This document shows, in pieces, positions 21,278 through 35,425 of a DNA stretch of 36,549 bases (positions are counted from its first letter, which is position 1; every line of letters begins with the position of its first letter). The notes below the pieces were generated by a model. The model saw only the letters and a list, made by a program, of their open reading frames with translations, did no database searches and was not told the origin of the DNA. The stretch spans positions 1 through 36,549 of the forward strand of contig JAWSUI010000037.1 in NCBI GenBank assembly GCA_033551855.1, in the 5' to 3' direction. A program made the position numbers and the translations under genes. The stretch comes from Deferrisomatales bacterium. Its GTDB lineage: Bacteria; Desulfobacterota; Deferrisomatia; Deferrisomatales; JACRMM01.

Positions 21278-22630
21278 TCAGTGCTGCTCGTACCCCCGGG
21301 CAAGGTTCTCGAACGCCGTGAACTCGCTCAGGAAGGCCAGCCGTACCATGTCAGTGGGACCGTGACGCTGCTTTCCGACGATGATCTCGGCGATCCCCTT
21401 TTCGGCGCTTTCCTTGTTGTAGACCTCGTCCCGGTAGATGAACATGACGACATCGGCGTCCTGCTCGATGGCTCCCGACTCCCGCAGGTCCGAGATGAGC
21501 GGGCGTTTGTCCGCCCGGGACTCCACGCCGCGGTTGAGTTGCGAGAGAGCCACCACCGGCACGGAGAGCTCCTTGGCCAAGCCCTTCAGGGAACGGGAGA
21601 TCTCGCTGATCTCCTGCTCGCGCACGTCGTAGGAGCCCCGACCCCGCATCAGCTGCAGGTAGTCCACGATGATCATCCCGAGGTTGGCCTCACTCTTGAG
21701 GCGCCGGGCCTTGGCGCGTAGGTCGAGGGTTGTGATGCCGGGGGTGTCGTCGATGAAGATCGGGGCTTCGGCCAGGGTTCCTGCGGCCCGCGTGAGCTTG
21801 GGCCAGTCCGAGTCCCGGAGCATCCCGCGCCGCAGGCGGTGCGAATCCACGCGGGCCTCGGCGCAAAGCAGGCGCATGACGAGCTGCTCCTTGCTCATCT
21901 CGAGGCTGAAGAATGCCACGGGGGTTCCCGTCTCGATGGCCGCGTACTGGGCGATGTTGAGCACGAAGGACGTCTTGCCCATGCCAGGGCGGCCGGCGAT
22001 GATCACCAGATCGGAGGGCTGGAACCCGGCAGTGAGCTGGTCCAGGTCGTGGTAGCCCGTGGGAACCCCCGTGACCAGGTCCTTTTTCTCGTAGAGCTCT
22101 TCGATCTTGGCGAACGTGTCCTTCAGGATGTCCTTCACCCGGGTGAAGGAGGGCCGCACCTTCCGGGCCGTGACCTCGAAGATCGCCTGCTCTGCCCGGT
22201 CGAGGTACTCCCCCACCTCGGCTTCCGACCCGTACCCTTCGCTGGCGATCGCCGTGGAGACCCAGATGAGCTTGCGCAGAATGGACCGGTCCCGGACGAT
22301 CCGGGCGTAGTGGACCGCATTCTCCACCGACGGCACCTGGTTGGTCAGGCCGGCCAGGTACGCGGCACCCCCCGACTTCTCCAGCAGGCCCTTCTGGCGA
22401 AGGGCCTCGGTCGCGGTCACCAGATCGATCGGCGAGCCCCGGTCGAAGAGCTCGAGCATGACCTCGTAGAGAAGCCGGTGGCCGGTGCGGTAGAAGTCCT
22501 CCCGGTCCAGGAGCTCGGTAACGTGGGTCAGGACGTCGTTGTTGAGGAGGACCGCGCCGAGCACCCCCGCCTCGGCCTCCAGGCTGTGAGGGGGAACCCG
22601 CTGGAGGGCGCCGGCATCCTCGGGGGCCAT
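21278..22630 (-). CDS. dnaB: Replicative DNA helicase DnaB
   Basis: PPHSLEAE, AGRPGMGKT, FSLEM, IVDYLQLM, LSQLNR, SDLRESGAIEQDAD; no intein. Confidence 0.98.
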   Translation of the reverse strand: MAPEDAGALQRVPPHSLEAEAGVLGAVLLNNDVLTHVTELLDREDFYRTGHRLLYEVMLELFDRGSPIDLVTATEALRQKGLLEKSGGAAYLAGLTNQVPSVENAVHYARIVRDRSILRKLIWVSTAIASEGYGSEAEVGEYLDRAEQAIFEVTARKVRPSFTRVKDILKDTFAKIEELYEKKDLVTGVPTGYHDLDQLTAGFQPSDLVIIAGRPGMGKTSFVLNIAQYAAIETGTPVAFFSLEMSKEQLVMRLLCAEARVDSHRLRRGMLRDSDWPKLTRAAGTLAEAPIFIDDTPGITTLDLRAKARRLKSEANLGMIIVDYLQLMRGRGSYDVREQEISEISRSLKGLAKELSVPVVALSQLNRGVESRADKRPLISDLRESGAIEQDADVVMFIYRDEVYNKESAEKGIAEIIVGKQRHGPTDMVRLAFLSEFTAFENLARGYEQH

Positions 22631-22638
22631 GGGCTCCC

Positions 22639-23091
22639 TTACTCCTCCCCTTCCTTTTCCACCACGACCGTGACCTTGGCCTTCACGCTCCCCGGGAGCT
22701 TGAGGGTTACGGGAAATTCCCCGAGTGCCTTGATAGGGTGGTCCAAGGCCACCTGCTTCCGACTCACCGCGTACCCCTTCTGCGCCAGGGCCTCCTCGAT
22801 GTCGAGGTTGGTAACGGAGCCGAAGAGCTGCTCCTGCTCCGAGGCCTTGCGCCGGAAGACCAGACGAGTCCCGGTCAGGGCTGCTGCGAGCTCCTGCGCC
22901 TTGGACACCTCCCGCAGGCGCTTCTTCTCGAGGGCCTTCTTCTGATGCTCGAGAGCCTTCACGTTCCGGGGATCGGCGATCATGGCCATCCCCCGGGGAA
23001 CCAGGTAGTTGCGGGCGTATCCGTCCTTGACGGAGACCACGTCCCCGACGGTGCCCAGGTTCTCGACGGATTCCTTCAGAATGACCTTCAT
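22639..23091 (-). CDS. rplI: 50S ribosomal protein L9
   Basis: MKVIL...LG..GDVV.VKDGYARNYLVP; LFGSVT. Confidence 0.98.
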   Translation of the reverse strand: MKVILKESVENLGTVGDVVSVKDGYARNYLVPRGMAMIADPRNVKALEHQKKALEKKRLREVSKAQELAAALTGTRLVFRRKASEQEQLFGSVTNLDIEEALAQKGYAVSRKQVALDHPIKALGEFPVTLKLPGSVKAKVTVVVEKEGEE

Positions 23092-23122
23092 CGGAGCGCC
23101 TCCTGTGGGCCGTTTCTTGGCA

Positions 23123-24082
23123 TCAGGTGTGGAGACCTGCCTCCGGGGGCCGGGGCGACCAGCGGGCTCGAAAATCGAACCAGAGATCGAAGGCCCCCAG
23201 GGCAGCCACCACGAGCATCAGGGGAAGCTGCACGAACAGCAGGATGTAGGCTGCGACACGCAGGAACCGTGGCAGACCTCGTGCCGTGAACAGATGATGG
23301 ATCACCGCGAGCCCCTGGAGAAAGTAGATCCCCAGGGCCACCACGAACACGTTCAACGCCAACGTCCCCAGGGGGCCGCCGGCGAAGAGGGCCAGGAGAC
23401 CCGCCCCAATCAGGCCCCAGATCCAGGACTCCGGGGCTCGCCACCCGGACCAGACCCCTTCCCCGGCTTCCACGGCGCCTCTCCGGGCGAGCAGGGCGTT
23501 CACCCAGCCGGTCAGGATGGCCAGGACCGCGTAGAGGCCCGGAAACGTCAACGACAGCACGCGCCGAGTCTGCTCCGCCCAGGACTGGACGGCCAGGGCG
23601 GCCTCCGCATCGGCATCTCCCTGGAGGAGAAACGCACCGGCCTGCTCCACGGCGTGACCCAGGGCCTGATCCAGATAGTCCAGGGGACCCAGCCCCGACC
23701 CGACCGCGAGAAACCCCAGGGAAAGCCAGAAGGCCGCGATGGCCAGGAGCGCGTAGGCCCCCACGACGACCTCTGGTTTCGCCCGGGCACGCAGGGCAAG
23801 GCCCAAGGCGCACCCGCCGGCGGCAAACTGGGAGGCGTACACCGCGGTTGCCACGGGCCCCGCCAACACGTAGAGCACCGCTCCCCCGCACCCGACGGCG
23901 ACCCCGGCTCCCCGAAGCCCCTGGCCCAAGGCCGTCCGCGCCAGGGGGAGGGGGCTCACCAGGGCGCCGAGGAAGCCGAAGGGGGGCAGCCAGAGCGAGG
24001 AGACGAAGAGGCCGCCGGAGAGCAGCCCGGCCCCGGCGGCGGGCAGCCAGGGCGGGGGCCCGGGAACGGTTGGCTGACTCAC
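23123..24082 (-). CDS. DUF2232/YybS family membrane protein
   Basis: Multi-TM protein with [30 protein letters not shown]; characteristic position between rpsR and rplI. Confidence 0.88.
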
Positions 24083-24318
24083 GCCTTCAGATTGCTCGTG
24101 AAGGGCAGGAGGGCGACGTTGCGGGCCCGCTTGATCTCCACCGCCAGCAGTCGCTGATGGTGGGCGCAGTTGCCGCTGATCCGGCGGGGCACGATCTTCC
24201 CCCGGTCCGAGAGGAACTGGTTCAGCACGGTCGGCTGCTTGTACGACAGCGAGACGTCCTTGTGGGTGCAAAAGCGGCAAACCTTGGGCCGCCGCTGGCG
24301 ACGAATGGGTCTGGCCAT
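24079..24318 (-). CDS. rpsR: 30S ribosomal protein S18 (zinc-binding form)
   Basis: CRFC...YK...[20 protein letters not shown]...[12 protein letters not shown]. Confidence 0.97.
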
Positions 24319-24397
24319 GTCCGGGTCTCCTTTGCTTCTCTCAGGGAGCCTGCGGGCGCCCTGGATCTGTCTCCTGCAAGGGGGCACCCCTCGGGGG

Positions 24398-24874
24398 TCA
24401 GCCCTCGTCCTCTCCGGTCTGCTCGCCGCTACCTTCCTTTTCTTCGCCGCGTTCGGCAGGGGTCGGGGCCACCGTGGGGGTCGGGGCCACCGTGGGGGTC
24501 GGGGCCACCGTGGGGGTCGCCGTCACCTGCTCGGGCGCGATCTCCACCGGCTCCGGCAAGGCGTTGGGGTCGATGGCGTCCGCCAGCTTCAATGTCTGGA
24601 ACTTCACCACGGTGTCGAGGAGGTTGAGCCGGCGGTCGAGCTCGCTGGCCACCCGGGGTATGCCCGCATACTCGAGGATGAGATAGTAGCCCTTGCGGCG
24701 CCCCTTGAGCTCGAAGGCCAGGTCTCGCAGGCCCCATCGCTCCGTCTTGAGGACACGGCCCTCGTTCCCGGTGATGATCTCCCGAACCTTTTGGATCATG
24801 TCCTCGGTGCCTTCGACTCCCAGCTCGGGGTCGAAGATCATCAAGGTTTCGTACCGCCTCCAGATCTCGGCCAT
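24398..24874 (-). CDS. rpsF: 30S ribosomal protein S6 with extended C-terminal tail
   Basis: [34 protein letters not shown]. Confidence 0.95.
24459..24519. repeat. Perfect 18-bp tandem repeat (~3.4 copies) in rpsF
   Basis: ggggtcggggccaccgtg x3 plus ggggtcg; encodes (PTVAPT)3. Confidence 0.95.
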
Positions 24875-24930
24875 GCTGTTCTCCTCTCGGGTTGGCAGCC
24901 CCTGGCCGGGCCAGGAGCAAGGAGAGGCGG
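24875..24930 (-). ncRNA. S6:S18-binding rpsF leader (cis-regulatory RNA)
   Basis: Minus strand CUCCUUG, then a 9-bp hairpin (gcuccuggc/gccaggggc), then ugccaac-CCG-AGAGGAG. CUCCU can pair with the SD and the CCR lies in the internal loop, matching the known rpsF leader architecture. Confidence 0.75.
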
Positions 24931-24958
24931 CCCCTGCGGCCGCCGGTGTGAACCGTGC

Positions 24959-24987
24959 CTTATACAGGATCGCCGGTCGGGGTTCAA
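24959..24987 (-). promoter_or_regulatory. Sigma70 promoter of the rpsF operon
   Basis: TTGAAC (24987-24982)-17 nt-TATAAG (24964-24959). Confidence 0.7.
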
Positions 24988-25032
24988 GACGCAGGACAGA
25001 CGCAGGACGTAGTTCGGTGTTCCTGCGCGTCC

Positions 25033-26331
25033 TCACAGATCTCCCATCACGGAGAGCACCTGGGCCTTGGCCAGCATGTAGTCGCGCAGCGAGCGGGCGT
25101 GGTCCGTTCGGGCCACGGTGAGGGCCAGCTGGGCATCGGATACGTCGAGAAGGATGGCCACCCCGTAGCGGTACGAGGTCTCGGCAAGCTCCAGCGCCTT
25201 CTCCGCCTGCTCGATGTTGAGGCTCGACGCGGGGATGATCTCGGAGGCCTCGGCCAACGCGTCCAGGGCGACCTTTGCCTCGAGGGTGATCTCCTCCCGG
25301 AGCTGGGAGGCCGCGAGGTCCACGTCGCGCAGCTGGCTGCGGGCCTGGGCCACCAGGCCACGGGTCCTCCAGCCGTCGAAGAGGGGGAAACGCAGGGTCA
25401 GGCCCGCGCCCCAGCGCTCGCGATCGGTGTCGAGGCGGTCGACGTGCCGCGACGCGAAGCCGTACTCGGCGTCGAGATCGATCCCCGGCTTGTCCTCGGC
25501 CCGCGCGATCTGGAGGTTTCTCTCCGAGACCTCCCGGGCCGCTTGCAGCGCGGCCAACTCGGGGCGCCGCGCCACGGCCCGGTCCACGACCTCCTCCAGC
25601 GTGAGCGTCGCCAGCGGAACGTACTCCAGGGAGCCATCGGCCTCCAGCGGCTCGGTTTGCTCCCGCGCCATCAGGTTGTTCAGTCGGGACCGGGCTTGTC
25701 GAACCCGGTTGCGTGCCTGGATCACCGGGGTGCGGGCGTTGGCCACATCCACTCGCGCCCGGATCACTTCGAGCTCGTTCACCACCCCCGCCTCGAAGCG
25801 CTTCTGGGCGACGTCGAGAACCCGCTCCCGCTGTTCCAGCCGCTCTTCCGCCACCTCCACCAGGCGCTGGCTCAACAGCAGCTCATAGAAGGCATCGTGC
25901 ACTTGGATCGTGACCACCCGCTCCGCGCCGGCCAGCTCCTCCCGGGATTGCCTCAGGGCGGCCTCCGCCGCGCGGACGGCCGCGGAAACCCTCCCCCAGC
26001 TGAACACGTTCTGGCGCAGGGTGGTCCGCACGGCGTAGTTGTCGGTCACCTCCGGCCGTATCAGGGACGAGAACTCGCTGTCGCGCACGCTCTCGTCGTA
26101 GCTGCGGCGGTAGCTCCCCTCGAGCCCCACCTGGGGGTAAACCTGGCTCTTGATCTCCTGGATCTGTCCCCCCTGGGCCGCCAGGCGCTCCCGGGCGCGC
26201 AGGACGTCGTGGTTGCGGGTCAGGGCAAGGGCCACCGCCTGGTCCACGTTGAGACGCGCCTCCTCCTGGCCCCTCGCGGGGGAGCCCAGGACTACGAGGG
26301 CGCAGAGGAATGCGAGCCGGAGTCGGTGCAT
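25033..26331 (-). CDS. TolC-family outer membrane efflux protein
   Basis: Signal peptide MHRLRLAFLCALVVLGSPARG; two OEP repeats (AVALAL..N, RFEAG...LEV, RRPEL, FPLFDG, YRYG...LDV). Confidence 0.9.
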   Translation of the reverse strand: MHRLRLAFLCALVVLGSPARGQEEARLNVDQAVALALTRNHDVLRARERLAAQGGQIQEIKSQVYPQVGLEGSYRRSYDESVRDSEFSSLIRPEVTDNYAVRTTLRQNVFSWGRVSAAVRAAEAALRQSREELAGAERVVTIQVHDAFYELLLSQRLVEVAEERLEQRERVLDVAQKRFEAGVVNELEVIRARVDVANARTPVIQARNRVRQARSRLNNLMAREQTEPLEADGSLEYVPLATLTLEEVVDRAVARRPELAALQAAREVSERNLQIARAEDKPGIDLDAEYGFASRHVDRLDTDRERWGAGLTLRFPLFDGWRTRGLVAQARSQLRDVDLAASQLREEITLEAKVALDALAEASEIIPASSLNIEQAEKALELAETSYRYGVAILLDVSDAQLALTVARTDHARSLRDYMLAKAQVLSVMGDL

Positions 26332-26417
26332 GGGGCTCTCCCCTGGGCGGCCGCGCGGGCACTGCCGGCCGGCGGGCAAAGAGAGTTTGCGGGACGGGGC
26401 CGGCGGCAGGACAGGCG

Positions 26418-27557
26418 TCACGGTGCCCGCCCGTGCCGGGGTAGCCGGCGCAGCTCCTCCAGGACGGTGTCGATCTCCTGGGCGGTCGTCTCCCTGCCGA
26501 GGCTCCAGCGCACCGCCCCGGCCGCGCGGCCGGGTTCGACCCCCATGGCCTGGAGCACGTGGGAGACGTGAATCCGCCCGGAGTGGCAGGCCGAGCCGGT
26601 GGAGGCCGCCACGCCCGGCAGACCCGCCAGGACCTCGCTGCCGAGGCGCCCCAGAAAGGAGACGTGCAGGGTGTTGGGCAGCACCGCGGACGTGCACCCG
26701 TTCCGGACGACCCGATCGCCGAAGAGCTCCTGGAGCCCGACCCAGAACCGGTCCCGGAGCTCCCGGGTCCGAGGCATCCCGAGGTCGCCTCCGGCCAGGG
26801 AGCAGGCGGCCCCCAGGCCGGCCGCCAGGAACGCGCTCTCCGTCCCGGCCCGCCGGCCCCCTTCGTGGCCGGCACCGTGGATCAGGGGGTGCAGGGGGGT
26901 CCCCTCCCGGACGTAGAGGGCACCTACTCCCTTGGGGGCACACAGCTTGTGGCCCGCGAGGGAGAGCAGGTCGACTCCGAGCTCGTCCACCCGGGAAGGG
27001 ATCTTCCCCACCGACTGGGCCGCGTCGGTGTGCAGGAGCACTCCGGCCTCTCGGCAGTACCGGGCGATCTCCGCCAGGGGCTGCACCGTCCCCACCTCGT
27101 TGTTGGCGTGCATGACGCTCACGAGCACCGTGCGGGGTCCGAGGGACCGCCGCACGTCCTCCGGGTCCACTCTCCCGCCGGCGTCCACCGGCACCCGGGT
27201 CACCCGCGCCCCCAGAGCCTCGAGCCACCGGCAGGGCTCCAGCACGGCGAGATGCTCGACGGCGGTGGTCACCAGGTGGTCCCCCCGCTCACGCAGGGCG
27301 AACCACGCGCCCTTGAGGGCGGCGTTGTTGGCCTCGCTCCCGCCGCTGGTGAGCACCACCTCCCCCGGCGTGCAGCCCAGGAGGTCCGCCACCCGACCCC
27401 TGCCCGCCTCCAAGGCCTCCCGCGCAAGCACGCCGGCCCAGTGAGCGCTCGACGGGTTCCCGAACCCGTCGCGGAGGAGGGGTTCCATGGCCCGGAGGGC
27501 CTCGGGCGCCACGGGGGTGGACGCGTTGTAGTCGAGATAGATGCGGCGTTCCGCCAT
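26418..27557 (-). CDS. Cysteine desulfurase (group I, IscS/NifS-like)
   Basis: IYLDYNAST, FGNPSS, TSGGSEANN, MHANNEVG, HTDAAQ, AGHK (PLP Lys), STGSACHS (catalytic Cys). Confidence 0.93.
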   Translation of the reverse strand: MAERRIYLDYNASTPVAPEALRAMEPLLRDGFGNPSSAHWAGVLAREALEAGRGRVADLLGCTPGEVVLTSGGSEANNAALKGAWFALRERGDHLVTTAVEHLAVLEPCRWLEALGARVTRVPVDAGGRVDPEDVRRSLGPRTVLVSVMHANNEVGTVQPLAEIARYCREAGVLLHTDAAQSVGKIPSRVDELGVDLLSLAGHKLCAPKGVGALYVREGTPLHPLIHGAGHEGGRRAGTESAFLAAGLGAACSLAGGDLGMPRTRELRDRFWVGLQELFGDRVVRNGCTSAVLPNTLHVSFLGRLGSEVLAGLPGVAASTGSACHSGRIHVSHVLQAMGVEPGRAAGAVRWSLGRETTAQEIDTVLEELRRLPRHGRAP

Positions 27558-27571
27558 CGCTTCGCTCCCGG

Positions 27572-28018
27572 TCACGCGTCCCGGCTGCGGGGCTCCCCCA
27601 GCCGTTCGATGTTGACGCCGGCCAGCGCCTTGACGGGGCAGGCGAGCTCGCACTGGCCGCACGCGGCGCACTTCTCCGCCGTGAACCGCACCTCCATGGT
27701 GCGGTGGTCCACCGCCAGCGCGCCGGTGCGGCACACCGCGGTGCAGGCCCCGCAGTGAACGCATCGCTCCTCGTCACGGCCGATGTTGTCGGCGATCAGT
27801 GTCACCTCGACCCCGGCCTGCTCCAGGTAGGCCACACCCCCGGCCACCCGCTCCGGGCCTCCCCGGAGCTCCAGGATCAGTCGCCCCTCGAGCCGGGGGA
27901 AGATCTTCGCCTCCAGGATGTTGAAGACCAGGTCGAACTCCCGGGCCAGGCGATAGATCACGGGCTGATACATCACGTCGGGCTTGAAGACCAGGAGGAC
28001 GTTCGTCGAGATCTCCAT
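27572..28018 (-). CDS. NIL domain-2x[4Fe-4S] ferredoxin (MA1822/MJ0099-like)
   Basis: NIL domain (QPVIYRLAREFDLVFNILEAKI) plus CVHCGACTAVC and CAACGQCELACP. Confidence 0.92.
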   Translation of the reverse strand: MEISTNVLLVFKPDVMYQPVIYRLAREFDLVFNILEAKIFPRLEGRLILELRGGPERVAGGVAYLEQAGVEVTLIADNIGRDEERCVHCGACTAVCRTGALAVDHRTMEVRFTAEKCAACGQCELACPVKALAGVNIERLGEPRSRDA

Positions 28019-28073
28019 GGACACTCCCTTCCCCCCGGCCGTCCTGCGTCCGCCTTTCGGCGGCGGGCGAACG

Positions 28074-28916
28074 TCAACTGCGCAGCGCCACGAGCTCCAC
28101 CTCCCCGACGGCGGCCAGCCGGTCCCCCAGCACCGCGAAGGCCCCCCGCACGCCGGGGACCGTCAGGGCCCACTCCACCGCTGCCGCCAGATTCCCCGGC
28201 TCCCGGACGCGATTGGCGACGGCGGTAGCCACCGCGTCCGCCAAGGCCGGGTCCGCCGCCACCGCGGTGGCGGCGTCAGCCCGGCCGTAGCTTAGGCTCG
28301 GGCCCACCGTTCCCGACGAAGTGCAGACCCCCAAGGGCGCGCTCCCCGGCGCTACCCGCAACCCGATCCGGCCGGAGAACGGAGATCCCCCGGCGAAGAG
28401 GCCGACGATCGTCTCGTCGGCGAGATCGAGAAAGACGTCCCCACCGTTCTCCACCAGGACCTCGAGCGACCAGCGGCGCAGCTCCCGTCCTACCGCCCCG
28501 GCGAGGGCTCCCGCCACCGCGGCCATGGGACCCACGCCCGCCGCCTGGCCCGCCGCGTACATGGACGCGATCACCGGCGGCAGGACCCCGCCGGGCTCCG
28601 ACAGGGGAGTCAGGGCCGTGGCGAAGGCCGGGCGGTCGGCGATGTGCGCCTCCACCTCGCGCCGGGCCCGCCGCGCAGCCTCCAGGGCTTCCGGTGAGAG
28701 GTCCCGGTCGGCTCGGAGGTAGAGATCCGTCGTCTCCACCCGCACCCGGAACGCGGTGCGCGGCCCGGCCGTCCGGGCGAAGGACCGATAGGTGCGCTCC
28801 CCCGCTCCCGGCCCGACGGGCGTCGCCGGGGGATCGACGAGGGAGCAGGTACCTCTGCCCGGCGACCCGTGACCGATGGGCCCGCCGGCCGGTCCCGTCC
28901 CCGGATCAGCGTGCAC
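28074..28916 (-). CDS. UPF0280/COG2122 ApbE-like protein (MA1715-like); start approximate
   Basis: ETTDL, VGPMAAVAGA, VENGGD, GVCTSSGTVGPSLSYGRADA, LADAVATAVAN. Confidence 0.9.
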   Translation of the reverse strand: MHADPGTGPAGGPIGHGSPGRGTCSLVDPPATPVGPGAGERTYRSFARTAGPRTAFRVRVETTDLYLRADRDLSPEALEAARRARREVEAHIADRPAFATALTPLSEPGGVLPPVIASMYAAGQAAGVGPMAAVAGALAGAVGRELRRWSLEVLVENGGDVFLDLADETIVGLFAGGSPFSGRIGLRVAPGSAPLGVCTSSGTVGPSLSYGRADAATAVAADPALADAVATAVANRVREPGNLAAAVEWALTVPGVRGAFAVLGDRLAAVGEVELVALRS

Positions 28917-30168
28917 CGTCGGCCGCCTCCCCGCTCTCCGGCCTTCGCTCGAGGCTCTCGACCCGTAGCCCCGTGCCCGTGGCGGTTCCCGCCCACGAGA
29001 CGCTGGCAAGCGGGACCTGCGGTTCCCCCAGGGTAAACCGCCCGGTGGAGATCCACTCCTTCAGGAGCTGCGCGATCTCCCGGGCCCTGGGAATGCTCGA
29101 GAGCGGCGAGGCCGGCACGTCCTTGCCCCGGACTGCGATCGTGCCCGCCTGGAGGTCTGCGTAGGTGACCTCCCCCAGGGGCTCTCCCTCGCCCTGGGGG
29201 TAGTCGCGGCCGTAGTCCACGACCGGGCACGTGATCTCCCGGTTCGAGACTCCGGTGAACCAGGCGAGCTCCTCGTGGAGCACCGGGATGGGCACGCCCA
29301 GGCCCACCATGAGGCTCGTCCCGTATCCCACCAGGCTGGCGCCCCGGAGGAAGCGGGGGTCCATCGCCTTGAGGTCCCCGGTGACCATCAGGGTTCCGGC
29401 TCCGCCGCGGGGCACGCCGCGCGCGTTGCGGGCGGCGGCCGGGGCGTGCTGGGTGCCGGCCCAGGAGATCACCCCCGGTGCGCCCCCCAGGAAGATCCGG
29501 GTGCCGGTGCCGAGGGTCCAGTAGTAGGGGTCGTTGAGCAGGGGGCTGAGCTCCCCGGCGGACGAGAACGTGGCGTTGGCCATCCGGGGCCGGAGCACGC
29601 CCATGTAGGTGTAGATGGTCCGATCCGAGAGGTTCACGGCGCAGTTGTAGTTCTGGTAGGCGTTGCGGGGGTTCACCAGGAGGGCGTTCCGGAAGTCCGC
29701 GAGCCGCATCTCGGACCGGTGCTCCCGCAGCGGGTAGCAGTCCGTGCCGTAGGACGTCGCCCGCAGGGTCACCTTCCGGCCCGCCACCAGGTCCTCGATG
29801 ACGTGGCCGCCGCCGTACGCGAAACGGCCGGGGTGGACCCGGTTGAGGGGGTCGTCCTCCGCCACCTGGGTGGCTCCCACGTAGCAGTCCACCGCGGCGA
29901 CCCCGGCGTACGCCTCCACCTCGTTCAGCCAAACCTTCGCCGCCTTCATCTTGGGCCGCGTGTGCCCGAAATTGAGGAACGCCCCGGAAGAGCACATGGT
30001 GCCGAAGGTGCCGGTGGTCACCACGTCCACCCGCCGGGCCGCCGCCTTGGCCCCCTCGGTGCCTACCACGTCGACCATCTCCTCGGCGGTGACGACCACC
30101 GCCTTGCCGGCGCGGATCTTCTCGTTGATCTCCGCTATCGTCTTCTGGACGGGGGGACGGTCGGGCAT
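28906..30168 (-). CDS. DUF39/COG1900 homocysteine biosynthesis protein (L-aspartate semialdehyde sulfurtransferase, MA1821/MJ0100-like), without CBS domains
   Basis: KTIAEINEKI..GKAVVVTAEE, VDVVTTGTFGTMCSSG, YGGGHVIEDL, YGTDCYP, NPRNAYQNY, LSPLLNDP; 420 aa. Confidence 0.92.
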   Translation of the reverse strand: MPDRPPVQKTIAEINEKIRAGKAVVVTAEEMVDVVGTEGAKAAARRVDVVTTGTFGTMCSSGAFLNFGHTRPKMKAAKVWLNEVEAYAGVAAVDCYVGATQVAEDDPLNRVHPGRFAYGGGHVIEDLVAGRKVTLRATSYGTDCYPLREHRSEMRLADFRNALLVNPRNAYQNYNCAVNLSDRTIYTYMGVLRPRMANATFSSAGELSPLLNDPYYWTLGTGTRIFLGGAPGVISWAGTQHAPAAARNARGVPRGGAGTLMVTGDLKAMDPRFLRGASLVGYGTSLMVGLGVPIPVLHEELAWFTGVSNREITCPVVDYGRDYPQGEGEPLGEVTYADLQAGTIAVRGKDVPASPLSSIPRAREIAQLLKEWISTGRFTLGEPQVPLASVSWAGTATGTGLRVESLERRPESGEAADGAR

Positions 30169-30252
30169 GGGGGTTCTCTTTCTCTTTCCTGGCGCGTCGG
30201 GGCGCCCCGAGTCTCCCCCAAGTGGGGGCCCGAGGTCCAGGGGGTCGTGTCT

Positions 30253-30439
30253 CCCAGGATTCCCCCCCTGTTCGGCGAGGGGCGTCCGGAAGCCCCGACG
30301 TTTCGCCCCGCGACCCGCGGCACGTCGAATGGGTGTCCCAGGCGCCCCGGTGCGCCGGGCTTCACCCGTCTTCGCCGACTCGGGCCCGACCGTGCAGGCT
30401 GCCTGGCCTCCGGCGCCGGGACTGGGGTACCATCCGGGC
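30253..30439 (-). repeat. Copy C of dispersed TIR-bounded intergenic element
   Basis: Minus strand acgggtgaagcccggcgc..gggacacccattcg..ccgcgggtcgcggggcgaaacgtcggggcttccgga..ggggaatcctggg aligns with A and B; the other end is decayed (atccgggc 30432-30439). Confidence 0.78.
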
Positions 30440-30440
30440 C

Positions 30441-30776
30441 ATGACACCGGAAGAGCGCTCCTGCCTCCTGGACGACCTGCAGCACGGGCGGACCTCCCGA
30501 AACCGGGAGTTGGAGCGGTTCGCCCGGCCCCCGGAGCGCGCGGTGCTCTCGGGTTACCGGATGGTCAAGGCGCTCCTGGGCGACGTGAGCCGGCCCGGGG
30601 TCCGGGTCCACGCTCGGTGGGTTCGGGGGGGAGAGAGCCTGGCCGTCGCCCTGGAGGATCCGGCGCTCCGGTACCGGCGCACGCTCCTCCTTTCCCCGTG
30701 GGAGGCGGCGTTCCTCGGCGGCGCGGGGGGGCCTGGGTTCGTCTTCCCCGTTGAGCGCCTTCCGGAGGTCCGGTGA
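30441..30776 (+). CDS. Hypothetical protein (111 aa) coupled to cysteine desulfurase
   Basis: Natural-looking composition, ATG start, GTGA overlap with the downstream desulfurase, TACCAT 7 nt upstream. Confidence 0.7.
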   Translation: MTPEERSCLLDDLQHGRTSRNRELERFARPPERAVLSGYRMVKALLGDVSRPGVRVHARWVRGGESLAVALEDPALRYRRTLLLSPWEAAFLGGAGGPGFVFPVERLPEVR

Positions 30777-31909
30777 CCGCCCCTGGCGACCGGGCGTACC
30801 TGGACTGGAACGCCTCGGCTCCCCTCAGGGCCGAGGCCAGGGACGCGCTCCTCGCGGCTCTGGACCGCTTCGGCAACCCCTCGAGCCCCCACCGGGAGGG
30901 CAGGGAGGCGAGGGCGCTCCTCGAGTCGTCTCGCGAGGACGTTGCGGCGCTCATGGGGTGCGAGCCGGGTGAGGTGGTCTTCACCAGCGGCGGCACCGAG
31001 GCCAACAACCTGGCCCTGGCGAGCCTGGCGGCCGGGGCCCGGCTGCGGTGCTTTGCCGCAGCGCGGCTGGAGCACCCCAGCGTGCTCCGTCCCCTCGAGG
31101 CGCTGGTGGACAGCGGCTGGGAGGCCCGCTGGATGCCCCTGGGGGAGGACGGGTGCGCGGAACCCTTTGTCTCTGCAGAGGTCGGTTTCGGGGTGCTCCA
31201 AGCGGCGAATCACGAGACCGGGGCCCTCCAGCCGGTGGGGCAGTTCCGAGGGGAGGCCGAGGAGGCGGGCCTCCCCTGGCACTGCGACGCGACGCAGGCG
31301 TGGGGGCGTGTGCCGCTGCGGGCGGGCGACCTCGGGTGCGCCACCGCCAGCCTCTCGGGGCACAAGCTCGGGGCGGCCAAGGGGGTGGGAGCCCTCTTCA
31401 TGCGCCGGGGCGGCAGAGTCGAGCCCCTCCTGTTGGGGGGCGTCCAGGAACGGGGGCGGCGGGCGGGGACCGAGAACCTTCCCGGGATCGCCTCCCTGGC
31501 GGCGGCCTGTGCTTGCGCGGCCAGGGATCGGGCGGCGGACGCGGCGTGGACGCAGGGGCTGCGGGACCGGGTGGTGAGCGCCGTCCAGGGCCTCGTGCCC
31601 CTGGCTTGGTGGAACGGGCCGGAGGACCCGGCGCGGCGGCTGCCGAACACGGCGAGCCTGTCCTTCCCGGGGATCGACGGGGAGACCCTCGTCCAGGCCC
31701 TGGACCTGGAGGGGGTCGCGGTGTCCGCCGGCACCGCGTGTGCCTCCGGCGCCGGGGAGCCGTCGCCGGTGCTGGCGGCCCTGGGAATCTCGGAGTGGCG
31801 GGTCCGCGGGGCGATCCGGGTGAGTCTGGGGCCCACGAGCCGCCCCGAGGACGTGGACCGCTTCCTGAATGCCCTGGCCCGGGTCCTGCCCCGGCTGAAG
31901 GGGGAGTGA
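30773..31909 (+). CDS. Cysteine desulfurase (group I), likely sulfur donor for MnmA
   Basis: YLDWNASAP, GNPSS, TSGGTEANN, ANHETG, HCDATQ, SGHK, SAGTACASG. Confidence 0.92.
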   Translation: MTAPGDRAYLDWNASAPLRAEARDALLAALDRFGNPSSPHREGREARALLESSREDVAALMGCEPGEVVFTSGGTEANNLALASLAAGARLRCFAAARLEHPSVLRPLEALVDSGWEARWMPLGEDGCAEPFVSAEVGFGVLQAANHETGALQPVGQFRGEAEEAGLPWHCDATQAWGRVPLRAGDLGCATASLSGHKLGAAKGVGALFMRRGGRVEPLLLGGVQERGRRAGTENLPGIASLAAACACAARDRAADAAWTQGLRDRVVSAVQGLVPLAWWNGPEDPARRLPNTASLSFPGIDGETLVQALDLEGVAVSAGTACASGAGEPSPVLAALGISEWRVRGAIRVSLGPTSRPEDVDRFLNALARVLPRLKGE

Positions 31910-32012
31910 GCGCAGGGCGTGGGGCAGCGGACCGCGGACCGACGACCGTGGGCGGGGCCCACCGGGCCGGAGGCCGGGCGCAGAGAGCACGGGGTGCAGG
32001 GCGTGGAGCCGG
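31910..32012 (+). repeat. Degenerate heptamer tandem repeats
   Basis: gcgcagg gcgtggg gcagcgg accgcgg accgacg accgtgg, and a second 7-periodic block from ~31978. Confidence 0.55.
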
Positions 32013-32061: not shown

Positions 32062-33135
32062 ATGACCGGGAGCGGGTCGCGCAGGATCGCCGTGGGGCTG
32101 AGCGGCGGGGTGGACTCCTCGGTGGCCGCCGCGCTCCTGGTGAAAGAGGGCTGGGAGGTGGTGGGACTCACCCTCAAGGTGTGGGACCGGTCCCGGTGCT
32201 GCTCCCTCGAGGACGCCGATGACGCGCGCCGCGTGGCGCGGCACCTGGGGATCCCGTTCTACGTCCTCGACGCGCACGCGGCCTTTGCCGCCGATGTGGT
32301 GGAGCCCTTCGTGCGCTCCTATGCCGGGGGCCGCACCCCGAACCCCTGCGTGCTGTGCAACCGCCGCATCAAGTTCGGCTGGCTCCTGGACCGGTCCCGG
32401 GCTCTGGGGTGCGGCGCCCTCGCCACCGGACACTACGCCCGCCTGGAGGGGGAGGGGCCCGCGCGGCGCCTGCGCAAGGGCGCGGATCTCGCCAAGGACC
32501 AGTCCTACTTCCTCGTCCCGGAGGGGCCGTCGGTCTTGGAGAGGCTCCGCTTCCCCCTGGGGGGGATGACGAAGGCAGAGGTGCGCCGCTTCGCGGCGGA
32601 ACGGGGGCTCCCGGTGGCCCGGAAGGCCGAGAGCCAGGACGTGTGCTTCCTCCCCGAGGGCGGGCTGGCTTCCTTCCTGGAAGATCGGCTGGGCACCCGG
32701 CCGGGGGACATCGTGGACGCCGAGGGAACCGTCCTGGGGCGTCACCGGGGCGTGCACGCCTACACGGTGGGCCAGCGCCGAGGGCTGGGGGTGGCGGCGC
32801 GGGAGCGGCTCCACGTGCTCGCGGTGCACCCCGGAAAGGGGCAAGTGGTGGTGGGGCCCCGCCGAGAGGCGCTGGCCCAGGGCCTGCGCACCGGCGAACC
32901 GGTCTGGCTGGCGAGACCCCCGGACGGCCCCCGGCGGTGTGCCGTGAAGATCCGGTCTGCCGCACCCGAGGTCGCGTGCCGGGTGGAGGAGCGGGACGGA
33001 GGGCTTCTTGTGACCTTCGTCGAGCCCCAGTTCGGCGTGGCCCCCGGACAACTCGCGGTCTTCTACGAAGGCGACGTTGTCCTCGGAGGGGCATGGATAG
33101 AGGAAGCGGTGACCGCCGTGGGTCGTGGCCGGTAG
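32062..33135 (+). CDS. mnmA: tRNA-specific 2-thiouridylase MnmA
   Basis: SGGVDSS PP-loop, TPNPCVLCN, ATGHYA, KDQSYFL, ESQDVCF, YTVGQRRGLG, APGQ. Confidence 0.97.
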   Translation: MTGSGSRRIAVGLSGGVDSSVAAALLVKEGWEVVGLTLKVWDRSRCCSLEDADDARRVARHLGIPFYVLDAHAAFAADVVEPFVRSYAGGRTPNPCVLCNRRIKFGWLLDRSRALGCGALATGHYARLEGEGPARRLRKGADLAKDQSYFLVPEGPSVLERLRFPLGGMTKAEVRRFAAERGLPVARKAESQDVCFLPEGGLASFLEDRLGTRPGDIVDAEGTVLGRHRGVHAYTVGQRRGLGVAARERLHVLAVHPGKGQVVVGPRREALAQGLRTGEPVWLARPPDGPRRCAVKIRSAAPEVACRVEERDGGLLVTFVEPQFGVAPGQLAVFYEGDVVLGGAWIEEAVTAVGRGR

Positions 33136-33399
33136 GACGGGGGACGGAGGACGGTTCATTGGGTGGATTGGGTGGATTGGTGCAAGGGCAGCACCTGCCG
33201 GTGCAAGCGTTGGTAGGGTGGGTCGAGGGCAGCGGACCCACCAGAGGTGGGCAGGGATCGGGGGGCGGGGGACGGAGGACGGAGGAGCGAGAGGCTGAGA
33301 GTTGAAGACGGAGAACCCAAGGATGTCGTCCACCGCGGATCACCTCATCACCCCTCAGGCGTCACCGCTCACGGCTCAACGGTCACCGTTCACCCGTGA
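33136..33399 (+). repeat. Heptamer and nonamer repeat tracts between mnmA and mtaB and in the mtaB 5' end
   Basis: gacggNN x3 (33136-33156); attgggtgg x2.5 (33158-33180); gacggag x2 (~33270); NNNNTCA heptamers x6-7 (33351-33399). Confidence 0.7.
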
Positions 33400-34723
33400 C
33401 GCCCGGGGGGCTGCGGCGACGCTTCGCGTCTCGGTGGTGACCCTCGGGTGCAAGGTCAACCAGTGCGAGTCCCGGGCCCTGGAAGAGAGCCTCGGCGACC
33501 GCGGGCACGTCGTGGTTCCCTTCGGCGAGCCCGCCGACGCCGTGGTGATCAACACCTGCACGGTGACGCACCGTTCGGACCGGGACGCCAGGGCCCTCGT
33601 CCGCCGAGCCCGGCGCACGGTGCCCGGCGCACGGGTGGTCGCCACCGGGTGCTACGCCCAGGTCGCCCCCGGGGAACTGGCTGCCCTGGGTGTCGACGCG
33701 GTAGTCGGCAACAGGGAGAAGAACGCGCTTCCGGAGCTCTTGGAGGCCGGGGTCGGCGGCGTTCTCGTGGGGGGCGTTTCGCAGGCGGGGGTTCTGGCCC
33801 CTGAGCCGGTGCACCGGTTCGAGGGCAGGTCCCGGGCGTTCCTCAAGGTCCAGGACGGCTGTGCGTGCTTCTGCGCCTACTGCATCGTGCCCTACGCCCG
33901 GGGCCCGTCCCGCAGCCTGTCCCTGGCCGAGGTCGGCTCGGGCCTGGGGCGGCTCCGGGACTCGGGGCACCAAGAGGTGGTGCTCACCGGTGTCCATCTG
34001 GGGTTCTGGGGACGGGACCTTGCGCCCCCGCGGGCCTTCGGTGAGCTCCTGGACGCGGCGGAAGCCTCGGGCGTCCCCCGGGTTCGGCTCTCCAGCTTGG
34101 AGCCCGGCGAGCTCACCGACGAGGTGGTCCGCCGGCTGGCGGGCTCCGCGACCCTCTGTCCCCACCTGCACGTCCCCCTCCAGTCCGGCTCCGACCGGGT
34201 GCTGGCGGCCATGGGCAGGCCCTACACCGGGGCGGAGTTTCGCAGGCGGGTCGAGGCGGCCGCCGCAGCGGTGCCGGGCCTGTGTCTGGGGCTGGACGTG
34301 ATCGCGGGCTTCCCGGGGGAGGACGAGGGCGCGTTCGAGGAGACCCTGGGGCTGCTCGAGGCGATCCCCTTCGCCTACCTGCACGTCTTTCCCTTCAGCC
34401 CCCGGAAGGGGACCCGGGCGTGGGGCCTTCCTGACCGGGTTCCGCCGCCCGTCGTCGCCGCCCGGGCGCGCCGGCTGCGGGAGCTCTCCGGCGTGCGCCG
34501 GAGAGCGTTCGAGCGAAACCACCGGGGATCGGTTATGCTGGCACTCCCGGAAGGGTGGGCATCCCCCGGGGTGCTCTCCCTGCGCACCCGCAACTACATC
34601 GAGGTCCGCGTCCCGTGGGCCGGGCCGCCGCCGCGCGAGGAGGTTTTCGTCCGGTTGGAGCGGCTGGAGGACACCTGGGTCGCGGGCCGCTGCACCGGCC
34701 CGGACGCTGCCGGAGGAGAGTGA
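33323..34723 (+). CDS. mtaB: tRNA t6A37 methylthiotransferase MtaB
   Basis: TLGCKVNQ, NTCTVT, TGCYAQ; radical SAM KVQDGCACFCAYC; LTGVHLG, HVFPFSPRKGT. Confidence 0.93.
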   Translation: MSSTADHLITPQASPLTAQRSPFTRDARGAAATLRVSVVTLGCKVNQCESRALEESLGDRGHVVVPFGEPADAVVINTCTVTHRSDRDARALVRRARRTVPGARVVATGCYAQVAPGELAALGVDAVVGNREKNALPELLEAGVGGVLVGGVSQAGVLAPEPVHRFEGRSRAFLKVQDGCACFCAYCIVPYARGPSRSLSLAEVGSGLGRLRDSGHQEVVLTGVHLGFWGRDLAPPRAFGELLDAAEASGVPRVRLSSLEPGELTDEVVRRLAGSATLCPHLHVPLQSGSDRVLAAMGRPYTGAEFRRRVEAAAAAVPGLCLGLDVIAGFPGEDEGAFEETLGLLEAIPFAYLHVFPFSPRKGTRAWGLPDRVPPPVVAARARRLRELSGVRRRAFERNHRGSVMLALPEGWASPGVLSLRTRNYIEVRVPWAGPPPREEVFVRLERLEDTWVAGRCTGPDAAGGE

Positions 34724-34726
34724 GCC

Positions 34727-35425
34727 GTGGACATGCGCCGCCGTGAGGATCTCCGGGATCTGGAGGAGCACCTGGGCTATCTCTTCGAGCGGCCCGAGCT
34801 CCTGGACCAGGCCCTCACCCACAAGTCCTACGCCAACGAGGCGGAACAGCCGGTGGCTGACAACGAGCGCCTGGAGTTCCTCGGGGACGCCGTGCTGGAT
34901 CTGATGGTGTCGCACCTGCTCTTCGACATCGCCCCGGGCCTTACCGAAGGCGAGATGTCGAAGGTGCGCGCCTTCCTCGTGAAGGAAGAGAGCCTCCGGC
35001 GCGTGGCGCGGGCCTTCGACCTGGGTGCGTACCTGCGGCTGGGGAAGGGGGAGGAGCAGACCGGGGGCCGCCACAAGGCCTCGATCCTGGCCGACACCTT
35101 CGAGGCGCTCCTGGCGGCCGTCTATCTGGACGGCGGGTTCGAGCTCGCCTACCGCTTCGCGGAGGGCATCTTCCAGCCCATCATCGCGGAGGCCGGCACC
35201 GAGGTCATGGACCGGGACTACAAGACCCGCCTCCAGGAGGTCTGCCAGGCCCGGTACGGCAAGGCCCCCGCCTACCGCCTGCTGTCCGAGTCGGGGCCGG
35301 ACCACGAGAAGGTCTTCGAGGTCGAGATCGTCCTGAGCAACCGCTCCCTCGGCCGGGGGCGGGGCCGCAGCAAGAAGGAGGCCGAGCAGCGCGCCGCCCA
35401 GGACGCCCTGGGGGTCCTGGAGTAG
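34727..35425 (+). CDS. rnc: Ribonuclease III
   Basis: ALTHKS, NERLEFLGDAVL, ADTFEALLAAVYLDGG; dsRBD DYKTRLQE..GPDHEK..SKKEAEQ. Confidence 0.98.
   Translation: MDMRRREDLRDLEEHLGYLFERPELLDQALTHKSYANEAEQPVADNERLEFLGDAVLDLMVSHLLFDIAPGLTEGEMSKVRAFLVKEESLRRVARAFDLGAYLRLGKGEEQTGGRHKASILADTFEALLAAVYLDGGFELAYRFAEGIFQPIIAEAGTEVMDRDYKTRLQEVCQARYGKAPAYRLLSESGPDHEKVFEVEIVLSNRSLGRGRGRSKKEAEQRAAQDALGVLE

Follow-up and report, generated by a model that had tools for sequence, protein, structure and literature searches.

Homocysteine is made from aspartate semialdehyde, by reductive sulfur insertion, in the L-ASST (L-aspartate semialdehyde sulfurtransferase) system, whose known members include MA1821, MA1822, and MA1715 of Methanosarcina acetivorans, DvMF_1464, DvMF_0262, and DvMF_0044 of Desulfovibrio vulgaris Miyazaki, and Dde_3007 of Desulfovibrio alaskensis. 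The route was shown genetically in Desulfovibrio (PMC5764234; PMC4045070), D. vulgaris mutants of the DUF39, NIL/ferredoxin, and COG2122 genes being rescued by methionine (PMC5764234). MA1821 carries a persulfide in vivo and COG2122 was proposed to load it, although how DUF39 acquires this persulfide is a proposal only (PMC5764234); the NIL-ferredoxin, in turn, was proposed as the electron supplier. MA1821 cannot do without its Cys54, and which sulfur species L-ASST takes up is described as unclear (PMC12068725). Here we describe a locus of a Deferrisomatales bacterium (assembly GCA_033551855.1; genome G000, 100% complete) in which the same three families are followed by a group I cysteine desulfurase, CSD_A, and by tolC. 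It lies on contig JAWSUI010000037.1, of which the whole stretch analyzed, 36,549 nucleotides, is referred to as the window. The pathway is already known, and the desulfurase insertion is a lineage-specific variant of it.

The probable homocysteine core and the adjoining desulfurase

The preliminary description of this DNA had reported five co-oriented genes, gaps of 14 bp between NIL-ferredoxin and desulfurase and of 86 bp between desulfurase and tolC, and two cysteine motifs in DUF39, all of which is borne out. The five genes share the minus strand (table 1), both gaps measure as reported, UPF0280 and NIL-ferredoxin stand 55 bp apart, and, with the GTG at 28916 taken as the probable start of UPF0280, this gene overlaps DUF39 by 11 bp. 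DUF39 retains Cys59 in TMCSSG and Cys144 in TDCYP, each invariant in 48/48 aligned rows; these are presumably equivalent to Cys54 and Cys131 of MA1821, a protein outside the alignment. The 48 rows contradict PMC4045070, which says that the family has no conserved cysteines. The Cys of LGVCTSSG in UPF0280 is nearly invariant in 47 rows, and the eight Cys forming two CX2CX2CX3C motifs in NIL-ferredoxin are invariant in 45 rows. UPF0280 scores 261.1 bits with NF003323, about 10 under the cut-off of 271, and its profile matches PDB 2o34 at E 3.6e-63. For DUF39, a Pfam search returned neither a CBS nor a ferredoxin domain, sequence profiles matched no solved structure, and there was no plasmid match; an MMP16/ComF identity is ruled out, TIGR03287 reaching 132.6, far under its cut-off of 363.95. 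The core had also been called methanogen-type: its three families were correctly identified, but the type is equally bacterial, given the Desulfovibrio genetics and the presence of DUF39 in 219/301 genomes of the window's phylum (and in 138/401 of a second one, a Bacillota sample). Very probably, DUF39, UPF0280, and NIL-ferredoxin convert aspartate semialdehyde to homocysteine through the established route of reductive sulfur insertion.

In a full-length alignment to E. coli IscS, CSD_A has an intact catalytic His102, Lys204 (which binds pyridoxal phosphate, PLP), and Cys324; its third-position GC content (0.92) is like that of neighboring genes. It scores under the NifS, IscS, and DndA equivalog cut-offs (399.7/530.75, 326.6/548, and 324.1/480, respectively). 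A selenocysteine lyase identity is not favored, with a PDB match weaker than that to IscS and an NF040779 score of 105.5 against 525. A promoter or terminator uncoupling the desulfurase was sought and none was found: positions 24500-31000 gave 0 sigma-70-like promoters and 0 intrinsic terminators (0.2 and 1.6 in shuffles), weak evidence at 70% GC. Rfam had 0 matches at E 1 in 22000-32000, so no known riboswitch lies there, and the intergenic folds do not surpass those of shuffled sequence (z -0.57, 0.77, -0.95). A complex prediction for DUF39, UPF0280, and the desulfurase speaks neither for nor against a complex: each of two runs scored 0.00, at a mark of 0.32 and with unfolded controls.

We tentatively favor, at a little under an even chance, a reading in which CSD_A is cotranscribed with the core and frees cysteine sulfur for the DUF39 route, as an optional supplement beside MetX/MetY. 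Sulfur would be released from cysteine onto Cys324 in a PLP-dependent step and then delivered to COG2122/DUF39, either as sulfide freed by reduction, which taken alone is unlikely, or by direct persulfide transfer, which is doubtful; following the literature, NIL-ferredoxin would supply the electrons and COG2122 would aid the sulfur loading of the DUF39 persulfide. The sulfur of CSD_A would supplement MetX/MetY, not replace them, and CSD_A itself is likely a later, optional addition to the core.

Methionine genes and linkage within the order

The preliminary description had further suggested that the locus could bypass MetA/B/C and free sulfide. In its obligate form, a five-gene cysteine-to-homocysteine relay, TolC included, would replace free sulfide and the classical methionine enzymes; co-orientation, short gaps, and the lack of a terminator match are in keeping with it. 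However, the bypass finds no support: G000 carries metX (NF001209) and metY (TIGR01326) over cut-off and two MetB/MetC-like genes under specific cut-offs (metA was not found in this genome), together with assimilatory sulfate genes and a nifU-nifS pair over cut-offs, with a true NifS, on contig C1. Of the genomes of the order, 19/21 have metX over cut-off, among them all five in which the desulfurase is linked to the core, and 21/21 have a metY match, 19 over cut-off (split in G007). Since the linked genomes keep metX and metY, no bypass is needed; moreover, linkage is lost in the same-genus genome G001, and TolC keeps its place with or without the desulfurase. The relay is largely refuted because classical genes are retained and linkage is patchy, and we consider it highly improbable. 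As side observations, about 4-5 kb separate metX from nifU-nifS in both G000 and G004, coordinates suggesting the same in other order genomes, and a cysK-like gene on G000 contig C48 (L178:15653-16579) appears split across two frames.

The order NIL-ferredoxin-desulfurase-tolC is found in 5/8 family genomes (G000, G003, G005, G006, and G007), from three genera; in G002 the contig ends too early to tell. The desulfurase had been placed in one operon with DUF39, which suits these five genomes and is tempered by the patchy pattern and the unlinked same-genus relative. In the linked genomes the gap after NIL-ferredoxin is about 11-25 bp and the desulfurases are 67-71% identical to the window copy; so tight a gap, kept in five genomes of three genera, supports sulfur supply as the role of CSD_A. 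An orthologue in G004 (72% identity), away from the core, sits among the sulfur genes ThiI-like, cysN, cysD, and cysH, with metY 11 kb off, which supports the same role.

The six desulfurase copies of the order form one clade (support 0.999; 100 for five copies in a second tree), the G007 row having been left out because its match extended past a stop. In the core-gene tree, whose inner nodes are weak (43-91), the linked genomes do not come together, and a single gain with later relocations or losses seems the simplest reading. Unlinked desulfurases differ from the family consensus at 3-5/133 columns (for outside rows the median is 3 and the 90th percentile 9) and linked ones at 8-9, and 3/4 of the linked copies, from kindred genomes, carry Tyr206Cys, found in 1/75 outside rows; both features fit either specialization or drift. 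The single clade, the unlinked copies in G001 and G004, a retention that does not exceed tolC's or rpsF's, and consensus departures compatible with relaxed selection would also suit a neutral neighbor, acquired once by the family ancestor, inserted into a transcribed gap between NIL-ferredoxin and tolC, and serving a general persulfide pool with no tie to homocysteine. We regard this as possible, if on the unlikely side, as six of seven family copies adjoin sulfur-assimilation genes and other desulfurase clades fill the same slot in further families.

Desulfurases in other genomes

Among 60 families, each represented by one genome, 10 have NIL-ferredoxin no more than 1.5 kb away from UPF0280; in 8 it stands downstream of UPF0280, and 5 of these 8 run on into a desulfurase. 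A NIL-centered search matched 35 genomes, with neighbors read in 15. The pooled census, a non-random sample, comprises 35 other families with DNA after NIL-ferredoxin, of which the next 1.4 kb was read: this slot holds a desulfurase in 7, mnmA in 9, mtaB in 10, and no query gene in 12, while any of desulfurase, mnmA, mtaB, or ThiI-like occurs in 19/35. None of the seven desulfurases belongs to the CSD_A subfamily (branch support 100), and no single supported clade unites them. Thus, the link of desulfurases to NIL-ferredoxin/COG2122 recurs but is optional, and CSD_A reached the slot separately. That non-CSD_A desulfurases fill it in 7/35 families supports the sulfur-supply reading, although the recurrence is confounded by an mnmA block: the desulfurase is followed by mnmA-mtaB in G030 and by mtaB in G220. 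Further support comes from G021, G102, and G105, three of five genomes read over long flanks, where the 6.4-9.4 kb that follow NIL-ferredoxin contain no mnmA, mtaB, or nifU match; for G032 and G056 the stretch read was just 1.5 kb.

The relatives of CSD_A, surveyed as the best 80 of 575 confirmed ones and drawn from many phyla, tell of a distinct background. Their loci hold ArsR/rhodanese genes in 39 cases, DsrE in 18, Sqr-like in 12, and a metallo-beta-lactamase fold in 10, with any of the four in 44/80. Because its relatives adjoin ArsR/rhodanese, DsrE, and Sqr-like genes, CSD_A is a desulfurase of the persulfide-module type, of separate origin from the core genes. Cys/Met PLP enzymes at 9/80 of these loci (7 MetB-like, 2 metY with metX) support sulfur supply, as do the failure to find dsrA in 21/21 order genomes (a search without positive control), the failure to find cysD in 3/5 linked genomes (it occurs in 10/21 of the order), and a precedent in which IscS is able to pass sulfane sulfur on to Thermotoga LarE, another Fe-S sulfur insertase (PMC9283937). 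A literature search found no paper devoted to the GSACH-motif subfamily. Two further relatives may be recorded: an ORF at locus L156 fused to a methyltransferase domain, and a CSD_A-related desulfurase in G163 (L429:6913-10044) two genes upstream of UPF0280, with a membrane-protein gene between.

Could the sulfur from CSD_A instead go into making or mending the two 4Fe-4S clusters of NIL-ferredoxin, and not into homocysteine? Group I enzymes usually serve in cluster building (PMC7585200), it is NIL-ferredoxin rather than DUF39 that desulfurases repeatedly adjoin, and an Rrf2 gene accompanies three of the seven other slot cases. Yet no ISC/NIF-type scaffold gene adjoins CSD_A, which is flanked by NIL-ferredoxin and tolC, nor is there one elsewhere in the block; the nifU-nifS pair on C1 is complete, and within the 80 loci the subfamily adjoins rhodanese, DsrE, and Sqr-like genes, not scaffolds. 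We hold cluster supply to be quite unlikely.

Several results weigh against a supply of cysteine sulfur to DUF39. G000 has cysD, cysN, APS reductase, sulfate uptake, and CysK-like genes, and five PF00266 matches besides CSD_A (six at E 1e-45 or better). The same-genus G001 (95% complete) reads DUF39-UPF0280-NIL-tolC, with its desulfurase, 77% identical, on another contig near a gene that we take to be a transketolase; G008 and G014 have the same core-tolC block and no CSD_A match at E 1e-90. TolC occurs in 7/14 order loci versus 4/14 for a co-oriented desulfurase; it is kept more often, and therefore family-level synteny alone explains retention. By its title, Allen 2015 describes the pathway as using hydrogen sulfide. 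DUF39, UPF0280, and NIL-ferredoxin were found at 0/80 of the CSD_A-relative loci. No desulfurase lies within 6 kb of DUF39 in 88 loci of the phylum outside the order (28 plus 60 picked for long contigs among the matches listed, a weak second DUF39 copy left out; 77 with at least 4 kb downstream) or in 80 metagenome loci (38 of them reaching 4 kb downstream), and the three found in 40 Bacillota-sample loci (from the 138 matched genomes) do not directly follow the core. Absence of the linkage from other genomes had been named as a refutation; it is seen in these DUF39-centered counts, but not in the NIL-ferredoxin-centered census. Finally, because mnmA fills the slot in nine families, the other slot desulfurases may serve tRNA thiolation, as may NIL-ferredoxin itself, which mnmA there follows directly; an old NIL-ferredoxin/desulfurase/tRNA-thiolation block could explain the seven cases. 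In the 88 loci the neighbors of DUF39 are LarE (32), NIL-ferredoxin (23), ThiI-like (22), Rrf2 (16), CysK (15), and MnmA (11), the LarE-family (TIGR00268), ThiI-like, Rrf2, and CysK genes being on the same strand within 6 kb; DUF39 clusters with other sulfur-insertion enzymes.

A bolder version of the cysteine-donor reading would have desulfurases fill the vacant place of upstream sulfur donor to the DUF39 pathway in those bacteria whose respiration yields no sulfide. Persulfide would pass from Cys324 to the conserved COG2122 Cys and then reach Cys59 of DUF39, desulfurases of two or more separate origins would have settled directly behind NIL-ferredoxin, and Tyr206Cys, on two branches of linked copies, would mark adaptation to the partner; we consider this improbable. 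A full-text literature search, with few subscription papers within its reach, found no report tying a desulfurase to the DUF39 pathway in bacteria; S1 Fig of PMC12068725, on archaeal L-ASST neighborhoods, may bear on the matter. With DUF39, COG2122, NIL-ferredoxin, and a desulfurase, the locus offers a four-protein kit for comparing cysteine with sulfide as donor; should the cysteine-donor test fail, it is an ordinary copy of the known pathway with a local insertion.

Neighboring genes and comparison with known systems

On the strand opposite to DUF39, and divergent from it, CSD_B heads a desulfurase-mnmA-mtaB-rnc block that was absent from the preliminary description (table 1); the CxxC-C type of its MnmA is defined in PMC8584467. 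A 111-amino acid ORF (30441-30776, plus strand) overlaps the CSD_B start; it has no Pfam/NCBIfam match, and homologues occupy the same place upstream of DUF39 in 4/14 order loci. TolC had been counted as part of the operon system, a view we do not favor: it directly follows NIL-ferredoxin, with no desulfurase in between, in G001, G008, and G014. It scores 154 with TIGR01844 against a cut-off of 225.15, G000 has no second TolC match at E 1e-10, and neither adaptor nor pump for tripartite efflux or type I secretion stands beside it, its neighbors being the desulfurase and rpsF. TolC is likely a positional bystander, unrelated to sulfur. The C-terminal tail of ribosomal protein S6 contains three tandem 18-bp copies (24466-24520) encoding a TPTVAP repeat.

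Table 1. Features of the window at and around the DUF39 locus
Feature	Position	Strand	Length (aa)	Evidence and remarks
TolC-family outer-membrane channel, orphan	25033..26331	-	432	PF02321, two stretches
CSD_A, group I cysteine desulfurase, GSACH-motif subfamily	26418..27557	-	379	PF00266 214.7 bits; between NIL-ferredoxin and tolC
NIL-domain ferredoxin	27572..28018	-	148	PF09383 58.6 bits and Fer4 models; two 4Fe-4S motifs
UPF0280/COG2122 ApbE-like protein	28074..28916	-		Conserved part from about residue 40; Cys in LGVCTSSG
DUF39/COG1900a (HcyBio), L-aspartate semialdehyde sulfurtransferase catalytic subunit (predicted)	28906..30168	-	420	PF01837 501.7 bits (cut-off 26.2)
CSD_B, second, unrelated group I desulfurase	30773..31909	+		PF00266 160 bits; separate clade; about 600 bp upstream of DUF39
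MnmA, CxxC-C type	32062..33135	+		NF001138 401.6 versus 284; NPCVLCN and SQDVCF motifs; probable start
mtaB methylthiotransferase and rnc (RNase III)	33302..35425	+		TIGR01579 361.1 versus 357.05; PF14622

Compared with the L-ASST system, the window has the same three families, the two conserved DUF39 cysteines, and a partner combining NIL and ferredoxin domains, and it shares with M. acetivorans a redundancy with the classical route. Unlike the methanogen form, its DUF39 lacks the C-terminal CBS, as does Dde_3007 (PMC4045070), so CBS is not required in the bacterial form; a further difference is the co-directional cysteine desulfurase and tolC behind the core. With the NIL-ferredoxin-(rrf2)-desulfurase-mnmA-mtaB-rnc block of the window's phylum it shares a desulfurase directly after NIL-ferredoxin, but CSD_A is of a different clade, no Rrf2 gene adjoins, and DUF39 is in the block. 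Likewise, CSD_A resembles the group I desulfurases IscS, NifS, and DndA in its class-V fold, PLP lysine, and GSAC catalytic loop, yet it stays under every equivalog cut-off, carries GSACH, and adjoins no scaffold gene.

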